Assembly (NCBI GenBank): GCA_963731865.1
Contig: CAVSXG010000003.1
Coordinates: 363,596-427,595, forward strand
DNA length: 64,000 bases
Direction: 5' to 3'
Source of the DNA: an uncultured Chloroflexia bacterium
Lineage (GTDB): Bacteria > Chloroflexota > Limnocylindria > Limnocylindrales > CSP1-4
Position numbers and translations under genes: made by a program. The first letter of the stretch is position 1; each line of letters begins with the position of its first letter. Below, one piece after another: positions 11,517-45,712 of the stretch. The notes beneath the pieces were generated by a model. The model had not been told where the DNA came from, did no database searches, and worked only from the letters and a program-made list of their open reading frames with translations.

Positions 11517-12587
11517 ATGGCCTTGGCGCGACGACGCCGCCCCATTGGCCCCCTGGACCTCCGCGCGCAGGCGATCCTTCGGGCCGTCATAGAGGAATAC
11601 GTCACAACCGCCACACCGGTCGGCAGCATGGCGCTCGTCGAGCGGTACGGCCTTGGTGTGTCCAGTGCCACCGTTCGCAACATCCTTGCCGAGCTCGAGG
11701 CCAACGGCCTGCTGACGCATCCGCACACCTCCGCGGGCCGGATCCCGACCGATGCCGGGTACCGGTTCTTTGTCGAGTCGATCGTGGAGGCCGTGCCGCT
11801 CCCCGCCGTCGAGCAGCTGATGATCCGCCACCAGTTCGGCCAGGTCGAGTTCGCGAGCGAGCACTGGTTCCGCCTCGCGGCGACGACGCTCGCGTCGATG
11901 ACGCGCTCCGCCGGGATCGCCACGCCGGCCAAGCCGCGCGACGCCCATATCCGCCGGATCGACCTGGTGGCCATCAACGAACGGATGGCGAGCCTGATCC
12001 TCGTGCTGCGTGAAGGGTCGATCAAGCAGGCGGTCATCTCGGTCGATGGTGACGAGACCCTCGACCAGCCAACGCTCAACCAGGCGGCAGCGCTGCTCAA
12101 CGATCGCCTCGTCGACCTCACCGCGTCGCGGGCGACGGCGCGGCTGGCGTCCCTGGGAGACGGGCCGGTCGAGCGCCTTGCCCGCCGGGTCGGCGAGCGG
12201 ATCGTCAGGATCGTCAAGGAATACGATGCCGCGACGATCGAGGAAGTCTTCAGCGACGGCTTGCTCAACGTCATGGCGGCGCCCGAGTTCGCCCAGAGCG
12301 ACAAACTCCGGCGGGTCTTCAGCGCGCTGGAGAACCGGGCGTATCTGGGCCAGCTCGTCGGCAGCGTGGCCGGGGCCGGTCGGATCCAGGTCTTCATCGG
12401 TCACGAGAACCAGCCGCTCGAGATGCAGGACGTTTCCCTCGTCCTTGCGCCGTACGGCCAGCCGGGCCGCGCGATGGGCGTGGTCGGCGTGCTGGGGCCG
12501 ACGCGGATGTCCTATTCCCAGGCGATCGGCACCGTCCGGTTCGTGTCTGGACTCATGAACGAATTGGTGGATCACCTCTATGCCTGA
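11517..12587 (+). CDS. hrcA: Heat-inducible transcription repressor HrcA
   Basis: PVGS, SSATVRN, HPHTSAGRIPTDAGYR and GVLGPTRMSY; adjacent CIRCE. Confidence 0.96.
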   Translation: MALARRRRPIGPLDLRAQAILRAVIEEYVTTATPVGSMALVERYGLGVSSATVRNILAELEANGLLTHPHTSAGRIPTDAGYRFFVESIVEAVPLPAVEQLMIRHQFGQVEFASEHWFRLAATTLASMTRSAGIATPAKPRDAHIRRIDLVAINERMASLILVLREGSIKQAVISVDGDETLDQPTLNQAAALLNDRLVDLTASRATARLASLGDGPVERLARRVGERIVRIVKEYDAATIEEVFSDGLLNVMAAPEFAQSDKLRRVFSALENRAYLGQLVGSVAGAGRIQVFIGHENQPLEMQDVSLVLAPYGQPGRAMGVVGVLGPTRMSYSQAIGTVRFVSGLMNELVDHLYA

Positions 12588-13179
12588 ACGACGACGCACG
12601 CGCGCCCAGGAGCGCGCGGACGCCATCGATGTCTCGGGGACCGCCCTGGTGGCCCAGATCGAGAAGCTGACCGGCGAGCTCGACACGGCACGCAAGGACA
12701 GCGACGAATTGGTCAATGCCCTCCAGCGCGAGCGTGCCGAGTTCCAGAACTTCCGCCGGCGCACGGCCGAGGAACGCCTCCGCGAGCTCGGTCTGGCGGG
12801 CGAGGACCTCATCCGCAAGGTCCTGGTCGTCGCCGACGATTTCGATCGCGCCATCGAGGCGCGACCGTCGTCGATCGCGCATGACCCGTGGTTCGAGGGC
12901 ATTGCCGCCATCGATCGCAAACTGCGCCAGCTCCTCGAGAGCGAGGGCGTGACCGCCATCGATGCGTCGGCGGGCAAGCCGTTCGACCCACGCGAGCACG
13001 AGGCGATCGCAAACGTGCCCGGCACCGGTCGCGAGGAAGGCGAGATCGTCGAGGAGGTCCGGCGCGGGTATCGCCTCCGCGATCGCGTCATCCGCCCGGC
13101 CCTGGTCGCCGTGGCCGCCAACACCACTGATGAAACGGCGGAGGCCGACTCCGCTTCCCGACCCCCGCACATCAACTAA
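12580..13179 (+). CDS. grpE: Nucleotide exchange factor GrpE
   Basis: RAEFQNFRRR, FDPREHEA and GYRLRDRVIRPALV. Confidence 0.95.
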   Translation: MPERRRTRAQERADAIDVSGTALVAQIEKLTGELDTARKDSDELVNALQRERAEFQNFRRRTAEERLRELGLAGEDLIRKVLVVADDFDRAIEARPSSIAHDPWFEGIAAIDRKLRQLLESEGVTAIDASAGKPFDPREHEAIANVPGTGREEGEIVEEVRRGYRLRDRVIRPALVAVAANTTDETAEADSASRPPHIN

Positions 13180-13194
13180 GGAGCAACACACGAC

Positions 13195-15132
13195 ATGGGC
13201 AAGATCATCGGCATCGATCTGGGCACGACGAACTCTGTCGTCGCCGTGATGGAGGGCGGCGAACCGACCGTCATTCCGTCGGCCGAGGGTGGCCGGACGA
13301 TCCCGTCCGTGGTCGCCTTCACCAAGACCGGCGAGCGCCTGGTCGGCCAGCTGGCCAAGCGCCAGGCGGTCACCAACCCGGCCAACACCGTCTTCTCTAT
13401 CAAGCGCTTCATGGGGCGCCGCTGGGACGACCCGGAGGTCAAGCGCTCCAAGGGCCTCGTGCCCTACGAGATCGACAAGGACGCCAAGAGCGACGGCGTG
13501 ATGGTCAAGGTCGGTGACGACAAGAGCTACACGCCGCCCGAGATCAGCGCGATGATCCTGCAGAAGCTCAAGACGGACGCGGAGGCCTACCTCGGCGAGA
13601 AGATCACCGAGGCGGTCATCACCGTCCCGGCGTACTTCGACGACACCCAGCGCCAGGCGACCAAGGACGCCGGGCGGATCGCCGGGCTCGAGGTCAAGCG
13701 GATCATCAACGAGCCGACCGCGTCGGCGCTCGCGTACGGCCTCGACAAGAAGCACGACGAGAAGATCGCCGTCTACGACCTGGGCGGCGGCACCTTCGAC
13801 ATCTCGATCCTCGAGCTGGGTGAGGGCGTCTTCGAGGTCAAGGCAACCAATGGCGACACGCACCTCGGTGGCGACGACTTCGACCAGCGGGTCATCGACT
13901 GGCTGCTGGCCGAGTTCAAGAAGGAACAAGGCATCGACCTGGCCAAGGACCAGCAGGCGTTGCAGCGGCTCAAGGAAGCCGCGGAGAAGGCAAAGATCGA
14001 GCTCAGCTCGACCGCCACGACCGAGATCAACCTGCCGTACGTCACGGCCGACGCCACGGGCCCCAAGCACCTGGTCGTGTCCCTGACGCGCGCCAAGCTC
14101 GAGGACCTGGTCGCGGACCTCGTCGCCAAGACCGAGGGTCCGGTCAAGGCTGCGCTCAAGGATGCCGGGCTCAAGCCCGGCGACATCGACGAGGTGATCC
14201 TTGTCGGTGGCATGACCCGCATGCCGGCGGTCGTCGAGGCCGTCAAGAAGATGTTCGGTGGCAAGGAGCCGCACAAGGGGGTCAACCCCGACGAGGTCGT
14301 AGCCATTGGCGCGGCGATCCAGGCGGGTGTCCTGGCCGGCGACGTCAAGGACGTCCTGCTCCTGGACGTGACCCCGCTGTCGCTCGGGATCGAGACGCTC
14401 GGCGGCGTGATGACCAAGCTCATCGAGCGCAACACCACCATCCCGACGTCCAAGTCGCAGGTGTTCTCGACCGCGTCGGACAACCAGAACCAGGTCGAGA
14501 TCCATGTGCTCCAGGGCGAGCGCGACTTTGCGGCCGACAACAAGACCCTGGGTCGGTTCATCCTCGACGGGATTCCGCCAGCGCCACGCGGGATCCCGCA
14601 GATCGAGGTCACCTTTGACATCGATGCCAACGGGATCCTCGACGTCAAGGCCAAGGATCGCGCCACCGGCAAGGAGCAGCAGGTCCGGATCACGGCGTCG
14701 TCCATGCTCGACAAGAGCGCGGTCGACCAGATGGTTCGCGACGCCGAGGCGCATGCCGACGAGGACCGCACGCGGCGTGAAGAGGTCGAGATCCGCAACC
14801 AGGCTGAAGCACTCAGCTTCCAGGGCGAACGGACCATCAAGGACCTAGGCGACAAGGTCTCGTCCGAGGACAAGGCCGAAACCGAGAACCGGATCGAGTC
14901 GCTGCGCGAAGCCCTCAAGGGCTCCGACATCGAAGCGGTCAAGACCGGGATGACGGCCCTGGCCGAGACGCTCCAGCGCGTTTCGACGGCCGCCTACCAG
15001 GCAGCCTCGTCTGCCGGGGAGTCAGGCAATGGCTCGACCGACGGGACGGGTGCGGCCGATGGCGATGCCCCCGAGGGTGAGGCCGCGTCGCCGGACGAGG
15101 AAACGGTCGAAGGAGAATTCAAGGAGGTCTGA
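13195..15132 (+). CDS. dnaK: Chaperone DnaK
   Basis: [23 protein letters not shown] and [19 protein letters not shown]. Confidence 0.98.
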
Positions 15133-15157: not shown

Positions 15158-15188
15158 AACGACCCGCGGGCCGATCCCGCGGGTCGTT
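15158..15188 (+). terminator. Hairpin after dnaK
   Basis: Perfect 13-bp stem AACGACCCGCGGG/CCCGCGGGTCGTT. Confidence 0.7.
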
Positions 15189-15189
15189 C

Positions 15190-15240
15190 GATTCGCGGCC
15201 GGATTCGCGGGCCGGATTCGCGGGCCGGATTCGCGGGCCG
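15190..15240. repeat. 13-bp minisatellite (GATTCGCGGGCCG) x4
   Basis: Read directly; the first copy lacks one G. Confidence 0.9.
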
Positions 15241-15282
15241 GGCGACCCGCGGGGCCGCAGTCCGGCCGAAGTCGGGCCGTTT

Positions 15283-15459
15283 GTGCCAGTTGGTCCCCAG
15301 GCGGGCGTTGGTCACGCGTTTCGTGACAATCGCTCGCCATGCGGACGATTGTCACGCCCGGCGCGTTGAGTCCTCCGCTTGCAAGCGTGGACGATGGTCC
15401 GTGATCGGCCGCACACGGGAAACCCTGTGACGAGTGCCCGCCTCAGGAGCATCTGTCAC
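15283..15459. repeat. Cluster A of 33-bp imperfect palindromic repeats (15283-15315, 15323-15355, 15427-15459)
   Basis: GTGMC...GTCAC arms with exact 33-bp length; 7-bp spacer between the first two; the third is inverted and lies inside the nuclease CDS. Confidence 0.8.
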
Positions 15460-16119
15460 GAACCAGACGCCGTGCATGGTCCCGACGGGCGATCTCAACC
15501 ACCTCCGGATCGCCACGTTGCGACCCGGCAGGGCCGCTCGAAGGGTCGCTGCGTGGGAGTCGACGCGTCGCCGAGCGGTTCGATCGTTTGGCAGGACCAG
15601 CAGCCGCGTCACGGAGACGGCCCGCCACCCGCGGTCGCGTGCCACATCCCGCCCAAGCCGACCCTTTCGGTCGAGGGAAACCAGCATTGCCTGGAGGTCC
15701 GGGACCACCGATTTGACTTCGACGACCAGGAGCGAACCCGTCGCCGGATGGAATCCGAGGACGTCGATCGACCCACGTTCGCCTCGGATGTTGAATGAGG
15801 CCTCTGGCAGCGCCTCCCAGCCGTTCGCCTTGAGGAGAGCGACGGCATATTCGACGAGACTTGCGTGTTTGGCGTCGCGCAGGCGATCAAGACCCTCGCC
15901 CTGCCATAGGAGCCGGAGTTCGACCCTGGCTCCCAGGGCGGTGACAACGCTCTCGAGGGTATGTACGGCTACCCGATCGGCACCCCCTCGTTCGATGCGC
16001 CCAACGACCGGTCGAGACAAACCGGCCCTGACGGCCAGGTCATCCTGTGACCACCGACGTCGCAGGCGAAGCGCACGCACGCCAAGCCCGAAGCGCACGA
16101 CTTCCACGGAGAGGAGCAT
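15352..16119 (-). CDS. XRE-family HTH protein fused to a PD-(D/E)xK nuclease-like domain
   Basis: N-terminal RALRLRRRWSQDDLA..GLSRPVVGRIERG HTH; C-terminal EASF..GERGSIDVL..LLVVEVKS (E..D..ExK). Confidence 0.8.
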   Translation of the reverse strand: MLLSVEVVRFGLGVRALRLRRRWSQDDLAVRAGLSRPVVGRIERGGADRVAVHTLESVVTALGARVELRLLWQGEGLDRLRDAKHASLVEYAVALLKANGWEALPEASFNIRGERGSIDVLGFHPATGSLLVVEVKSVVPDLQAMLVSLDRKGRLGRDVARDRGWRAVSVTRLLVLPNDRTARRRVDSHAATLRAALPGRNVAIRRWLRSPVGTMHGVWFVTDAPEAGTRHRVSRVRPITDHRPRLQAEDSTRRA

Positions 16120-16191
16120 CGCGGGCAGGCATGCACCACGGCTTATCCCGCTCAGCTCGGAGCGGATAACACGTGACCTGGGCCGGACAGG

Positions 16192-37765: not shown

Positions 37766-37798
37766 CCTGGGTCGCGGGAGCCCGCGCCAAGCCAATTC

Positions 37799-37965
37799 GT
37801 GCCGGATGTTCGTCAGGCGGTCATAGGTCACGGCCAATCCGGAAGCCATCGCGGCACTGAGCGTGGAGCGCCTCGCTCAGCCTCTCAGTCGCTGTCAAAT
37901 GATCACGTCGGCGACCAGTTGGCACAGATCTCGTGACGAGCGCTCACTCGAGGAGCATTTGTCGC
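37799..37965. repeat. Cluster B of the 33-34 bp palindromic repeats (37799-37831, 37892-37925, 37933-37965)
   Basis: Same arms and length as cluster A; 7-bp spacer between the last two. Confidence 0.75.
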
Positions 37966-37976
37966 GATCCGCCGCC

Positions 37977-38093
37977 GCGCGCCTCAGGGGCGCACCTCAG
38001 GAGCGTGCCTCAGGCAGCGCGCCTCAGGAGCGTGCCCCAGGAGCGCGCCTCAGGGGCCGCCTCAGGGGCGTGCCCCAGGAGCGTGCCTCAGCA
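37977..38093. repeat. 13-bp minisatellite (GCGYGCCYCAGGR) x9
   Basis: Nine 12-14 bp tandem units, read directly. Confidence 0.9.
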
Positions 38094-38100
38094 GCGCGCG

Positions 38101-38214
38101 CCGCCTCCCTGGCCGGCGCTCCATGGCCGGCGCTCCATGGCTGGCCGCTCCCCGGCCGGCCGCCTCCCTGGCCGGCCGCTCCCCGGCCGCCTCCCTGACC
38201 GGCCGCTCCCCGGC
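38101..38214. repeat. Degenerate ~14-16 bp GC-rich minisatellite (CGCTCCCYGGCCGGC-like), about 8 units
   Basis: Read directly. Confidence 0.8.
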
Positions 38215-38221
38215 GAGCTCG

Positions 38222-39490
38222 TCAGCCGGCGAACCGGGGCAGGTGCGCCCGGTTGGCGTCGAGGAGCGCGGCCAGTAGCGGCTCGGCGATTGCCCACTCG
38301 CCGACGAGCGGGTTGGCGATCAACGCCCGGAGCGCCGTCCGGCGATCTCCGCTTCGAGCCGCGTCCACCGTCAGCTCCTCGTACGCCTTGACCGCCTGGA
38401 CGAGGCCGCGCATCTCGGGCGCGAGTGGCGCGAGGGGCACCGCGTGGGCGCCCTCGCGATCGATCCGGGCGGCGATCTCGACCACCGCCGAATCGGGCAG
38501 GTCGGGAAGCGCCCCGTCGTTGCGCATGTCCACGACCTGCAGGTCGCCGGCGCCGTCGTAAAGGGACGCGATCAGCTGGGCCGCGGCTTCGCTGTAGTGC
38601 GCGCCACCGCGATCGGCCAGCAGCGCCGGTTTCTCGGCCAGGCCCTGGTCGCGGTACAGGTCGAGCAGCCGAGCCTCGATGTCGATCACGTCCTGGGCAC
38701 GTGTGTGGCCATTACGCTGCTCGCTGATGACGCTGGCCGTCTCGTAGTAGTAATGCAGGTAGTACGACGGGATCGCGCCGAGCGCCCGAACGAGCTCTAG
38801 CGGCAGGCCGACGTGGTCGGCCAGCCACGCGCCGTCGCGCTCCAGCAGCTCGGGCAGCCGATCGACGCCATCGACCCGGGCGGCACGTTCCCAGCTCAGG
38901 TGATTGAGCCCGACCTGCTCGAGTTCCACGCGCTCAGGCGGAACGCCCAGACGATCGGCGATGGTCCGCTGGATGTTGATCGCGACATTGCACAACCCGA
39001 GTGCCCGATGGCCCTCGTCGAGCAGGGCCTGCGTGACGATGCCCACGGGGTTGGTGAAGTCAACGATCCACGCCCCGGGCGCCGCTCGCCGGGCGGTCAA
39101 CTCGGCCAGCTCGAGGACGATCGGGACGGTCCGCAACGCTTTTGCAAACCCGCCGGCACCCGTCGTTTCCTGGCCGATCACCCCAAATCGCGGCGGCAGG
39201 GTCTCGTCGACGAGACGCGTGGCCTGACCTCCGACGCGGAGCTGGATGAGGACGAAATCGGCCCCGTCGACCGCCGCGTTCCGGTCGCCGGTGAGTCGGA
39301 GTCGGCCGACCCAGTCGAGCCGATCGAGCATCCGCTGGGCCAGGCCGCCCACGACCTCGAGACGCTCGGCGTCGATGTCGAGGAGCACCAGCTCATCGAT
39401 CGGGAGCCGATCGGCTCGCCGGACGAAGCCTTCCACCAGTTCCGGGGTGTACGTACTGCCGCCACCGACGACGGCGATCTTGACGCCCAG
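38222..39490 (-). CDS. GH4 NAD+-dependent 6-phospho-beta-glucosidase (LicH/ChbF-like); apparent CTG start
   Basis: KIAVVGGGSTYTPEL, QLRVGG, GQETTGAGG, FTNP, GLCN, GLNH and RGGAHYS. Confidence 0.9.
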   Translation of the reverse strand: MGVKIAVVGGGSTYTPELVEGFVRRADRLPIDELVLLDIDAERLEVVGGLAQRMLDRLDWVGRLRLTGDRNAAVDGADFVLIQLRVGGQATRLVDETLPPRFGVIGQETTGAGGFAKALRTVPIVLELAELTARRAAPGAWIVDFTNPVGIVTQALLDEGHRALGLCNVAINIQRTIADRLGVPPERVELEQVGLNHLSWERAARVDGVDRLPELLERDGAWLADHVGLPLELVRALGAIPSYYLHYYYETASVISEQRNGHTRAQDVIDIEARLLDLYRDQGLAEKPALLADRGGAHYSEAAAQLIASLYDGAGDLQVVDMRNDGALPDLPDSAVVEIAARIDREGAHAVPLAPLAPEMRGLVQAVKAYEELTVDAARSGDRRTALRALIANPLVGEWAIAEPLLAALLDANRAHLPRFAG

Positions 39491-44450: not shown

Positions 44451-45495
44451 CCGCCTCGCGCCCGACGGCGGCGATCCTCGCGGTCGACGGTGGCAATTCA
44501 AAGACCGACGTCGCTCTCGTGTCCGCCGATGGGCGGCTCCTGGCCGCCCTCCGCGGCCCGACCACGTCCCACCAGCAGGTCGGACTCGAATTCGGCGCCG
44601 ATCGGCTCGCGGCCCTCGTCCGTGAGGCGTGGGCGCTGGCGGGCATGCGCGAGGACGATCCGCGCCCGGCCGTGGGCGTGCTACGCCCTGGCCGGTGCCG
44701 ATGCGCCGGCCGACCACGGCAACATCAGACGGGCATTCGATGGCACGGGACCTCGCGCGCGAGACCCAGGTCGTGAACGACGCATTCGCCCCGATCCGGG
44801 CCGGATCCGATCGCGGCTGGGGGGTCGCCCTCATCTGTGGCTCGGGGATGAACGCGGCCGGCATCGGCCCGGACGGTCGTCGCGCCCGGCTTGCGGCGCT
44901 CGGCGGGATCTCGGGGGACTGGGGTGGTGGCGGTGACGTCGGCCTCGCGGCGCTCGGTGCCGCCGTCCGGGCGCGCGACGGCCGCGGTCAGCGGACAGCG
45001 CTCGAGACCGCGGTGCCGGCCTTCTTCGGGCTGTCGCGCCCGCTCGACGTCACCCGGGCCATCGAGGATGCGGTCATGCCGCAGGCGCGGCTCCGGGAGC
45101 TCGCGCCAACCGTATTCCGGGCGGCCGCGGATGGGGACCCGGTCGCGCGGTCGATCATCGACCGCCTGTCGGACGAGCTCGTGGTGATGGCCGGGGCGAT
45201 CATCCGCCGGCTCTCGCTCACGCGGCGGCAACCCGACGTCGTTCTCGCGGGGGGCATCTTCGCAACGACGGACCAGTCGTTCCATTCCCGGATCCGCGAG
45301 GGCGTGGAGGCCATCGCGCCAGGCGCCACCGTTCGGCGGTCCGAGGCGTTGCCGGTCCTCGGTGCCGCGCTGCTCGGTCTCGACGCGCTCACCGGCATGA
45401 CCGCAGGAGATCATCGAGCCGCCGAGACGCTGCTCAAGGATGAGCTGGGTACTTGGCGACCGGCCGACGACCGTCCGTCGCCGTCTGGTTCGTGA
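44447..45495 (+). CDS. BadF/BadG/BcrA/BcrD-type sugar (N-acetylglucosamine-like) kinase, with two +1 frameshifts
   Basis: AVDGGNSKT, ALAGAD, VVNDA, CGSG.N, GDWGGG and VLAGG spread across three frames. Confidence 0.82.
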
Positions 45496-45712
45496 CAAAT
45501 GCAACTGAGGCGGACCTTCGTCACAACAGTTCACGAGCTATCGGGCTAGCCAGGCGATGCTCACGCTCGGGAGCCGGCGGTGAGCCGCCGGATTTGTGAC
45601 AGATGTCCCGCCCGCGGAACATTCGTCACGCAGCCCGTGGCGAATGCCCGCCTGAAGGGCATCTGGCACGAAATGCGGGCGTCCGGCGCCGTTCAGCGAT
45701 GTCGCCGGGCAC
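45492..45712. repeat. Cluster C of the 33-34 bp palindromic repeats (45492-45524, 45596-45629, 45637-45669; degenerate copies 45532-45564 and 45679-45712)
   Basis: 45492-45524 matches the reverse complement of 15427-15459 at 27/33; 7-bp spacers. Confidence 0.8.

Follow-up and report, generated by a model that had tools for sequence, protein, structure and literature searches.

An HTH/PD-(D/E)xK gene of the Limnocylindrales whose coding sequence overlaps a dispersed three-arm repeat element

The locus and its nuclease-fold gene

We analyzed a 64,000-nucleotide stretch of DNA (the window) from an uncultured Chloroflexia bacterium (GenBank assembly GCA_963731865.1, contig CAVSXG010000003.1, positions 363,596 to 427,595), in which a gene for a protein with an XRE-type helix-turn-helix (HTH) domain and a PD-(D/E)xK nuclease fold is overlapped at its 3' end by a repeat element that is also dispersed in the genome. 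A sequence-only reading of the window had proposed that a 33-bp palindrome may be served by this gene, much as repetitive extragenic palindromes (REPs) are served by REP-associated tyrosine transposases (RAYTs). The source genome (G000) comprises 3.76 Mb in 7 contigs, with a G+C content of 68% and a completeness of 78.7%, and records of related loci were labelled Candidatus Limnocylindria or Limnocylindrales, phylum Chloroflexota. Shares of the 64-kb stretch in public sequencing runs were 0.15 at most, and no RNA run was among those listed.

The gene, defined from its open reading frame (ORF), Pfam, AlphaFold2 (AF2), and Foldseek, occupies positions 15352..16119 on the negative strand and encodes 255 amino acids. 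A grpE-dnaK operon (12580-15132) lies directly downstream of it and is convergent with it. The HTH domain (residues ~10-69, nucleotides 15913-16092) was recognized by the Pfam families HTH_31 (E value of 1.5e-8, 35.3 bits against a cut-off of 27) and HTH_3 (1.5e-7, 31.8 bits against a cut-off of 23), and a Pfam match to the MmcB-like PD-(D/E)xK family (E value of 0.029) remained under its cut-off. In the AF2 model (predicted local distance difference test score, 90.1), a nuclease fold spans residues ~77-221 (15457-15891) and stops at residue 221; the remaining residues, 222-255, were modeled with low confidence and are predicted to be a disordered tail.

Foldseek matched the N-terminal domain to HigA2, C.AhdI, and HipB, and the C-terminal domain to the restriction-like endonuclease (RLE) domain of R2 (E value of 4e-5), NucS/EndoMS, SduA, AF1548, and Hjc. 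The C-terminal domain has in common with R2 RLE, NucS/EndoMS, Hjc, and the Shedu protein SduA both the PD-(D/E)xK fold and an E...D...ExK site. Sequence likeness to proteins in the PDB, in contrast, was nearly all confined to the HTH: of 66 matches at E values up to 0.01, 65 covered the HTH only, and the remaining one, a weak match (E value of 0.003) to a restriction endonuclease, covered profile positions 86-132. TnsA and Rpn/YhgA are further PD-(D/E)xK nucleases that target DNA as part of mobile or recombination systems. NCBIfam gave HTH-level matches only, all under their cut-offs, PADLOC matched the protein at the level of the HTH only, to controller proteins and capH, and no GIY-YIG domain was found by Pfam, NCBIfam, or fold searches of the gene product.

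The proposed active site held up when 45 sequences with 35-73% identity to the query were aligned. D119 (15763-15765) and E134 (15718-15720) were invariant, and K136 (15712-15714), E106, and F220 were at least 90% conserved, so that an E106/D119/E134-x-K136 site accompanies the predicted fold. Across the same 45 members, residues 221-231 were variable and were followed by an RVR motif. From the model and the alignment, we confidently assign the protein a PD-(D/E)xK restriction-endonuclease-like core with predicted nuclease activity.

Of 8,000 candidate homologs scored, more than 2,672 had E values up to 1e-5, and every named one is annotated as an XRE-family regulator. The family as defined here consists of 361 clusters (50% identity, E values up to 1e-30). 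It was present in 26 of the 301 Chloroflexota genomes sampled, all from the class of the window, at 1-8 copies per genome: 14 of 15 genomes of family f1 and 11 of 15 of family f3 carried it, and searches of other families gave no member. Because the gene adjoins a convergent dnaK in 29 of 48 related loci, it has been inherited in place.

Just upstream of the gene, at 16131-16160, is a palindrome of about 30 bp, TTATCCCGCTCAGCTCGGAGCGGATAA. In 24 orthologous upstream regions, the only conserved feature was the word GATAAGC, ~35-40 bp before the start. The palindrome was weighed as a candidate for the actual operator of the gene; it may be a promoter or an autoregulatory site separate from the repeat.

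Anatomy of the three-arm element

The three 33-bp units described earlier were confirmed at 15283-15315 (unit 1), 15323-15355 (unit 2), and 15427-15459 (unit 3). The reverse complement of unit 3 indeed encodes VTDAPEAGTRH, and the tail of the ORF on the negative strand reads ...GVWFVTDAPEAGTRHRVSRV.... Unit 2 supplies the TGA stop of the nuclease gene, since the positive-strand TCA at 15352-15354 falls within its GTCAC end. The recurrences at 37799 and 45492 were genuine as well.

The motif itself required revision. The pattern GTGMC-N23-GTCAC had 8 matches in the window, corresponding to 5 places of which 3 were counted on both strands, as opposed to 0.51 expected, and all 100 shuffles had fewer than 8. 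Genome-wide, however, the looser pattern GTG[AC]C-N23-G[GT]CAC had 21 matches at a spacing of 23 and 11-39 at other spacings. Since the loose pattern of end pentamers is not enriched at this spacing, the signal resides in the full 33-43 bp profile. We built such a profile from five clear units and scanned the genome with it and with a covariance model. The nine clear units reported before came down to eight in the window, one of them weak.

What had been taken for a single 33-bp palindrome proved to be one arm of an inverted pair. The profile search found 8 elements of the window type in the genome, 3 in the window and 5 on contig C2, each consisting of an inverted pair of arms 140-187 bp apart. 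The covariance model retrieved the same 18 strong arms genome-wide, and all strong matches paired at less than 200 bp. The consensus of the 18 arms is nnTTC-GTGnCAAATGCTCCTCAGGCGAGCATTCGTCAC, a near-palindrome of 33 bp that has the TTC foot at its outer side but not at its inner one. Arms can be aligned among the 8 elements, and the interiors of these old copies cannot.

The gene-linked element is 185 bp long (15279..15463, negative strand), lies between the convergent dnaK and nuclease genes, and has the order L arm, spacer, inner arm, R arm. The L arm (unit 3; 15422..15464, core 15427-15459, negative strand) lies within the coding sequence at codons 219-232, its TTC foot being the codon for Phe220. 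The inner arm (unit 2; 15318..15360, core 15323-15355, positive strand) is the most perfect palindrome of the three and holds the TGA stop (15352-15354). The R arm (unit 1; 15278..15320, core 15283-15315, positive strand) is inverted relative to the L arm and bears the R-type signature GCGTTGGTCAC. The inner and R arms are 40 bp in register, a spacing noted earlier for units 1 and 2 that was seen again at C2:1440388/1440428 and in relatives.

Of the two dispersed elements in the window, element 2 (37794..37970) has an R-type arm at 37794-37836 (positive strand) and an L-type arm at 37928-37970 (negative strand). It begins 30 bp past the stop of an mfd-like gene that is convergent with a gene of glycoside hydrolase family 4 (GH4). 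Element 3 (45487..45674), with arms at 45487-45529 (positive strand) and 45632-45674 (negative strand) and a weak inner unit at 45591-45634 (positive strand), is found upstream of a gene for a transporter of the major facilitator superfamily (MFS).

The full layout was best seen in G010, a congener richer in copies. At 20 loci of this genome, an L-type arm (..GCGCTCGTCA) was followed by a spacer of about 55 bp with a common motif, an inner arm like that of the window, and an R-type arm (..GCGTTGGTCA), the outer R-type arm being 40 bp in register with the inner arm. This is also the layout of the gene-linked elements in G010 and in the window, where unit 3 is L, unit 2 is the inner arm, and unit 1 is R. 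The distinction between L-type and R-type arms was also found again in orthologous loci and in the dispersed copies of G010. Because layout and spacer motif are common to the 20 loci, the sequence comparison indicates that the copied unit is the complete three-arm element of ~180-185 bp, not one 33-bp palindrome.

Nucleotide-level constraint within the coding sequence

The 3' end of the gene had been described as built from an inserted repeat. Instead, the position of the L arm is conserved across the family: the arm starts at the codon for the near-invariant Phe220 and covers the first residues of the variable tail that is predicted to be disordered. Among 19 orthologs, identity at third codon positions was 0.72 in codons 219-232, compared to 0.39 for the HTH and 0.46 for the nuclease domain. 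The reverse held for amino acids, with an identity of 0.54 in the arm codons and of 0.66-0.67 in the HTH and nuclease domains. At codons 222 and 229, the third bases were invariant and amino-acid identity was only ~0.2. Beyond the L arm, amino-acid identity in the tail was 0.22, and the position of the stop varied from 214 to 272 residues across family loci.

Conservation of third codon positions where amino acids vary points to an overlapping constraint at the nucleotide level. On this comparative evidence, the L arm is a nucleic-acid element that overlaps coding sequence.

Linkage of the element to the gene family

The expectation that homologs carry the repeat at their 3' ends was borne out. 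Among 44 loci whose gene is complete, the arm profile of the window detected the L arm in 24 and, shortly after the stop codon, an inverted R arm in 23. A profile-free test, in which the 3' coding segment was compared with the reverse complement of the downstream DNA, gave scores above those of all 100 shuffles for 21 of the 43 loci and for none of the 43 internal controls. Loci from other genera and a second family were positive in 8 of 26 cases.

The L and R arms co-evolve within loci. At 14 of 47 loci, the L arm found its best partner in the DNA downstream of the same gene, as opposed to about 1 locus expected by chance (p of 7e-13), and arm sequences were wholly different between paralog groups while matching within each locus.

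The genome of the window contains four paralogs in addition to 15352..16119. Paralog C4 has its own arm pair (score of 45 versus a null maximum of 27), and its arm variant, TTTCCTGCCAAATGTCGGCC.GGTGACCCTTGGGC, was found in 7 dispersed elements and one solo arm. Paralog C2b (G000:C2:889836-890557) also has an arm pair (42 versus a null maximum of 27). Its match extends over two reading frames; judged from its sequence, C2b is either frameshifted or the carrier of an assembly error. In G266, which belongs to a different genus, a third arm variant was found together with dispersed matches that include a complete pair, C99:7587/7754. The dispersed families are specific to paralogs.

Arms also match by genome. 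Dispersed arms were closer to the gene-linked arms of their own genome in 14 of 15 cases in G000 (1 tie) and in 34 of 41 in G010 (6 ties and 1 opposite), a comparison whose reference set was larger for G010 and so favored it, which counts to that extent against the partnership weighed below.

In seven loci (L004, L006, L008, L019, L025, L027, and L039), further arm matches were located 60-420 bp upstream of the nuclease gene. Five of the seven contained an inverted pair or a tandem set; L004/L056 corresponds to G010:C10:135070-135449. Elements thus flank the gene on both sides in those genomes.

Dispersed copies in this genome and its relatives

The prediction of intergenic enrichment was confirmed. 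Counting both families of the genome, 11 of the 14 dispersed elements lay essentially outside crude ORFs, with less than 20% of their length covered, compared to 26.6% of random segments (p of 7e-5). Seven of the 14 were located between convergent genes, seven between co-directional genes, and none between divergent genes. Their neighbors included mfd, GH4, MFS, rarA-like, DAO oxidoreductase, Rieske, GH57, GntR, and LOG genes and genes for pyridoxal phosphate (PLP) enzymes. It had also been considered that the repeat might flank a RAYT or another transposase elsewhere. PF01797 (RAYT/Y1 transposase) had no match in the 78.7%-complete genome, and the dispersed copies were flanked by unrelated housekeeping genes.

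Copy number varied among relatives, at sites that are not orthologous. Arm matches were found in 8 of 18 congeners, at 1-35 units, and in none of the other 10, and 12 genomes of a sister family contained neither arms nor gene. Among the repeat-sharing genomes, those with at least 14 units (G001, G008, G009, and G010) all had a match to the window protein with an identity of 61% or more. This match was spread over more than one reading frame in G001 and G009, which may reflect decay or long-read indel error. G016 had an ortholog that was at least 61% identical but only 2 units, and G005 had a partial match and no units.

All three elements of the window genome chosen for comparison (element 2, element 3, and C2:1417394) were absent at the matching loci of 5 relatives each. 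For element 2, the comparison also took in 80 metagenome loci that surround relatives of mfd with amino-acid identities of up to 96%; none of them had a unit, and neighboring genes differ there. In one contig that is ~91% identical, 39 other letters replace positions 37766-38230, a segment of 465 bp including element 2; other junctions in this contig comparison were set aside for short sides or low likeness. At the position of element 2 and the tandem repeats beside it, loci L087 (G016) and L209 (metagenome) carry ~680 bp of other sequence, with a small open frame after mfd, and the spacer has therefore been remodeled in the lineage of the window.

Comparison with known systems

In the literature consulted here, two enzyme classes have been tied to dispersed palindromic repeats of their own: the HUH RAYTs (PMC3733652) and the GIY-YIG Ssn nucleases (PMC11893778). 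REPIN-RAYT systems consist of REP doublets and RAYTs (PMC3116915, PMC3337134, PMC5581495, 10.1101/2021.07.10.451892). Like them, the system described here has short imperfect palindromes that form inverted doublets with a less conserved spacer and are dispersed between genes. Repeats of its own flank the nuclease gene and, in the present case, also overlap it, a situation noted for the ends of RAYT genes in PMC3733652. Vertical inheritance at a syntenic site (here next to dnaK in 29 of 48 loci), different repeat families for different gene copies, and variable copy number among relatives are further common traits. The differences begin with the enzyme, which is an XRE-HTH/PD-(D/E)xK protein instead of an HUH/Y1 transposase, the genome having no PF01797 match. 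The foot is TTC (the Phe220 codon) instead of a 5' GTAG, the unit is a three-arm element of ~185 bp at low copy number with 1-8 paralogs per genome, and one arm is constrained coding sequence in the whole gene family.

Ssn-NTS/SRM systems pair GIY-YIG single-strand nucleases with hairpin repeats (PMC11893778). What Ssn-NTS and the present system have in common is a small non-transposase nuclease gene bordered by cognate semi-palindromic repeats, with repeat variants that differ from homolog to homolog, an orientation conferred on the repeat by a non-palindromic flank, and counts that differ strongly between species (PMC11893778). Unlike the GIY-YIG enzymes, the protein described here is a PD-(D/E)xK enzyme with an added HTH, and where Ssn repeats are single hairpins of ~30 bp in hundreds of copies, ours are three-arm elements in roughly 8-17 copies (PMC11893778). 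Ssn has a demonstrated function, the restriction of single-stranded DNA (ssDNA) during transformation, whereas the present system is known from sequence comparison and predicted structure (PMC11893778). The biochemistry of Ssn, too, followed from genomic evidence of this kind, namely repeats beside the gene, variants specific to each homolog, and variation in copy number (PMC11893778). With a different enzyme class and a different repeat tag, the system belongs to neither REPIN-RAYT nor Ssn-NTS.

Miniature inverted-repeat transposable elements (MITEs) are likewise short, non-coding, and intergenic, have terminal inverted repeats, and have their end sequence in common with a protein-coding master locus, here with an ORF running into one end. 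In contrast to MITEs, there is no autonomous element between two ends, and no linked DDE, serine, or tyrosine transposase, and the gene keeps a conserved chromosomal position (dnaK synteny in 29 of 48 loci). Inspection by eye of the aligned elements and of printed flanks showed no target-site duplication. An origin as MITEs from a parent insertion sequence is not supported, since both arms are at the 3' end of the gene, all strong arms pair within 200 bp, and the gene is syntenic with dnaK.

Our search of the open-access literature, to which subscription-only papers do not belong, found no described HTH/PD-(D/E)xK-repeat system and no description of PD-(D/E)xK proteins with a cognate dispersed repeat and a master copy in their own coding sequence.

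Interpretation and alternatives

The checks that followed from the sequence-only reading support, at the level of comparative genomics, its REPIN/RAYT-like interpretation, under which the enzyme would bind, cut, or spread the repeat. We lean, if only modestly, toward a nuclease-repeat partnership resembling REPIN/RAYT or Ssn/NTS but built on a PD-(D/E)xK enzyme that would bind, cut, and copy its element. A bolder version would make this a third class of bacterial nuclease-repeat symbiosis, evolved independently of RAYT-REPIN and Ssn-NTS, in which an HTH-guided PD-(D/E)xK nuclease copies its own ~185-bp element to intergenic sites from a master copy lying partly in the codons of the disordered tail, with several cognate pairs per genome. 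We put this version forward tentatively, as one whose chances fall slightly short of even.

In the proposed mechanism, a protein dimer would recognize each arm sequence-specifically, and the nuclease domain would cut at or near the arms. Cutting would occasionally lead to the complete element being copied into intergenic DNA 3' of genes; variable copy number and non-orthologous positions are indirect evidence of such mobilization. The copy at the gene would be the master and, because it would keep enzyme and repeat co-inherited, each paralog would evolve its own cognate repeat family.

Several points weigh against this partnership. Its support comes from comparative genomics, and neither a biochemical activity nor the insertion or excision of an element has been observed. 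To our knowledge, PD-(D/E)xK nucleases alone do not carry out strand transfer, so a mechanism for copying is lacking. A transposase could have been missed in a genome that is 78.7% complete. Available relatives provided no clean empty site and no definable target-site duplication: their intergenic DNA is so diverged that the ends of the elements and any duplications are unreadable, and no direct repeat was visible by eye in the alignment of elements or in the flanks of those in G010. Copy numbers in the genome are low (8 and 8 elements for the two families). Because the genomes that share the repeat are kin, the counts of gene/repeat co-occurrence do not constitute a set of independent events. 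A 3' inverted repeat is detectable in only about half of family loci, and two of the five paralogs of the genome, C6 and C2a, have no detectable one. For the locus of the window itself, the profile-free test was negative in its first setting (score of 22 versus a null maximum of 31) and positive only in the second (32). Finally, the arm variant of C2b has no dispersed copies in the genome, and that of a paralog in G313 has one weak dispersed match only.

The best-surviving alternative, which we nevertheless consider unlikely, is that the protein serves chiefly in transcription control or DNA architecture and that the arms are its operators. The dispersed elements would then be a small regulon, or roadblock or looping sites, that arose by ordinary duplication and drift, and the PD-(D/E)xK domain would be a dimerization or sensor module or a rarely used nuclease. 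The N-terminal domain is a typical XRE HTH, nearest to HigA2, HipB, and restriction-modification controller proteins, and arm pairs ~140 bp apart could allow looping. The palindromic arms, with conserved mismatches and no covariation, look as dimer binding sites would, and diverging repressors would likewise have paralog-specific arm variants. Location argues otherwise: none of the 14 dispersed elements is between divergent genes, most are just 3' of genes, and the gene-linked site is at the 3' end of its gene, not at the promoter. Nor would one expect of an operator-binding protein that the catalytic E/D/ExK residues be (near-)invariant across 45 diverse homologs. The element positions, moreover, are not kept among relatives (0-35 units), unlike those of a conserved regulon, and the common whole-element architecture with its spacer motif points to copying rather than to convergent sites.

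An improbable alternative, less likely still than operators, is that the repeat acts at the RNA level, as a long 3' stem-loop serving as a terminator, a stabilizer, or an RNase target that the protein does not recognize, with the 3' hairpin of the gene as the source of copies. Folded as ssDNA, the gene-linked element does form a stem of L with R, beside a separate hairpin in the inner arm, at -100.7 kcal/mol (z of -4.72), with none of 200 shuffles as good. Such a stem would yield co-evolution of L and R within loci, and the elements are downstream of genes, as REPs are. However, element 2 as ssDNA folded no better than its shuffles (z of +0.60). Most single arms, too, are not notably good hairpins: of the 7 arms tested in the window, the inner arm (unit 2) alone folded better than shuffles (z of -4.61), and the other 6 were unexceptional. 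RNA-type covariation within arms showed no excess (71.5% of cells paired compared to 71.4% in shuffles), and mismatches were conserved, such as A11/C33. L and R differ at conserved positions (CTCGTCA as opposed to TTGGTCA), which would be mismatches in a stem, and the covariance models of Rfam 15 had no matches at E values up to 1 in positions 14000-47000 of the window. An RNA element explains neither the paralog-specific dispersed families nor the spread of copies. The absence of within-arm covariation, together with the unexceptional folds of element 2 and of 6 of the 7 single arms, favors sequence-specific recognition over recognition of structure alone. The data favor arms that would be sequence palindromes with conserved mismatches, not covarying stems, with pairing possible at the gene-linked copy.

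That the arms are instead recombination sites that invert a segment of ~110 bp and so switch the C-terminal tail, or are chance remnants of local inverted duplications, is very improbable: an inverted repeat spanning the end of a coding sequence with one arm inside is the geometry of shufflon-type and Gin/Hin-type switches, but the tail past the arm is disordered and poorly conserved (amino-acid identity of 0.22), stop positions vary (214-272 residues), the dispersed copies are outside genes, and no recombinase is linked to the elements.

If the nuclease-repeat partnership is real, a long-lived and vertically inherited association of this kind arose repeatedly on unrelated catalytic scaffolds. 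Recognition would be readable from the genome, each paralog carrying its target inside its own gene and several cognate pairs coexisting in a cell, so that specificity swaps and co-evolution would be directly testable. It could also yield a family of sequence-specific nucleases with long sites (~33 bp). The locus offers a clear natural case in which a coding region is overlapped by a nucleic-acid element and the resulting constraint on synonymous sites can be measured. Its gene belongs to a large family that has so far been annotated only as "XRE-family regulator" and that, in our sample, is confined to one class of Chloroflexota.

Other repeats near the elements

Short G+C-rich tandem repeats were found near three of the elements, at 15190-15241, 37977-38230, and G000:C2 ~1417600-1417680 (locus L052). 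A 13-bp unit repeated 4.1 times is located 37 bp from the R arm of the gene-linked element, arrays of 13/38 bp and 15/27 bp begin 7 bp past element 2, and three copies of a ~22-bp unit follow the element at C2:1417394. These repeats may be a by-product of element insertion or repair, or may simply be common in the spacers of this genome.

A different repeat of ~45 bp (..CCCGTTGGGTCACCCCGTGGGTGAACCAGCGT..GAGCGGCTC..), unrelated to the arms, occurs 2-3 times in the spacer downstream of the mfd-like gene at locus L088 (G017:C3). Separate from the gene-linked element, a G+C-rich hairpin (CGAACGACCCGCGGG-ATCGG-CCCGCGGGTCGTTG) is located at 15158-15192, 26 bp past the stop of dnaK, and looks like the terminator of dnaK itself.

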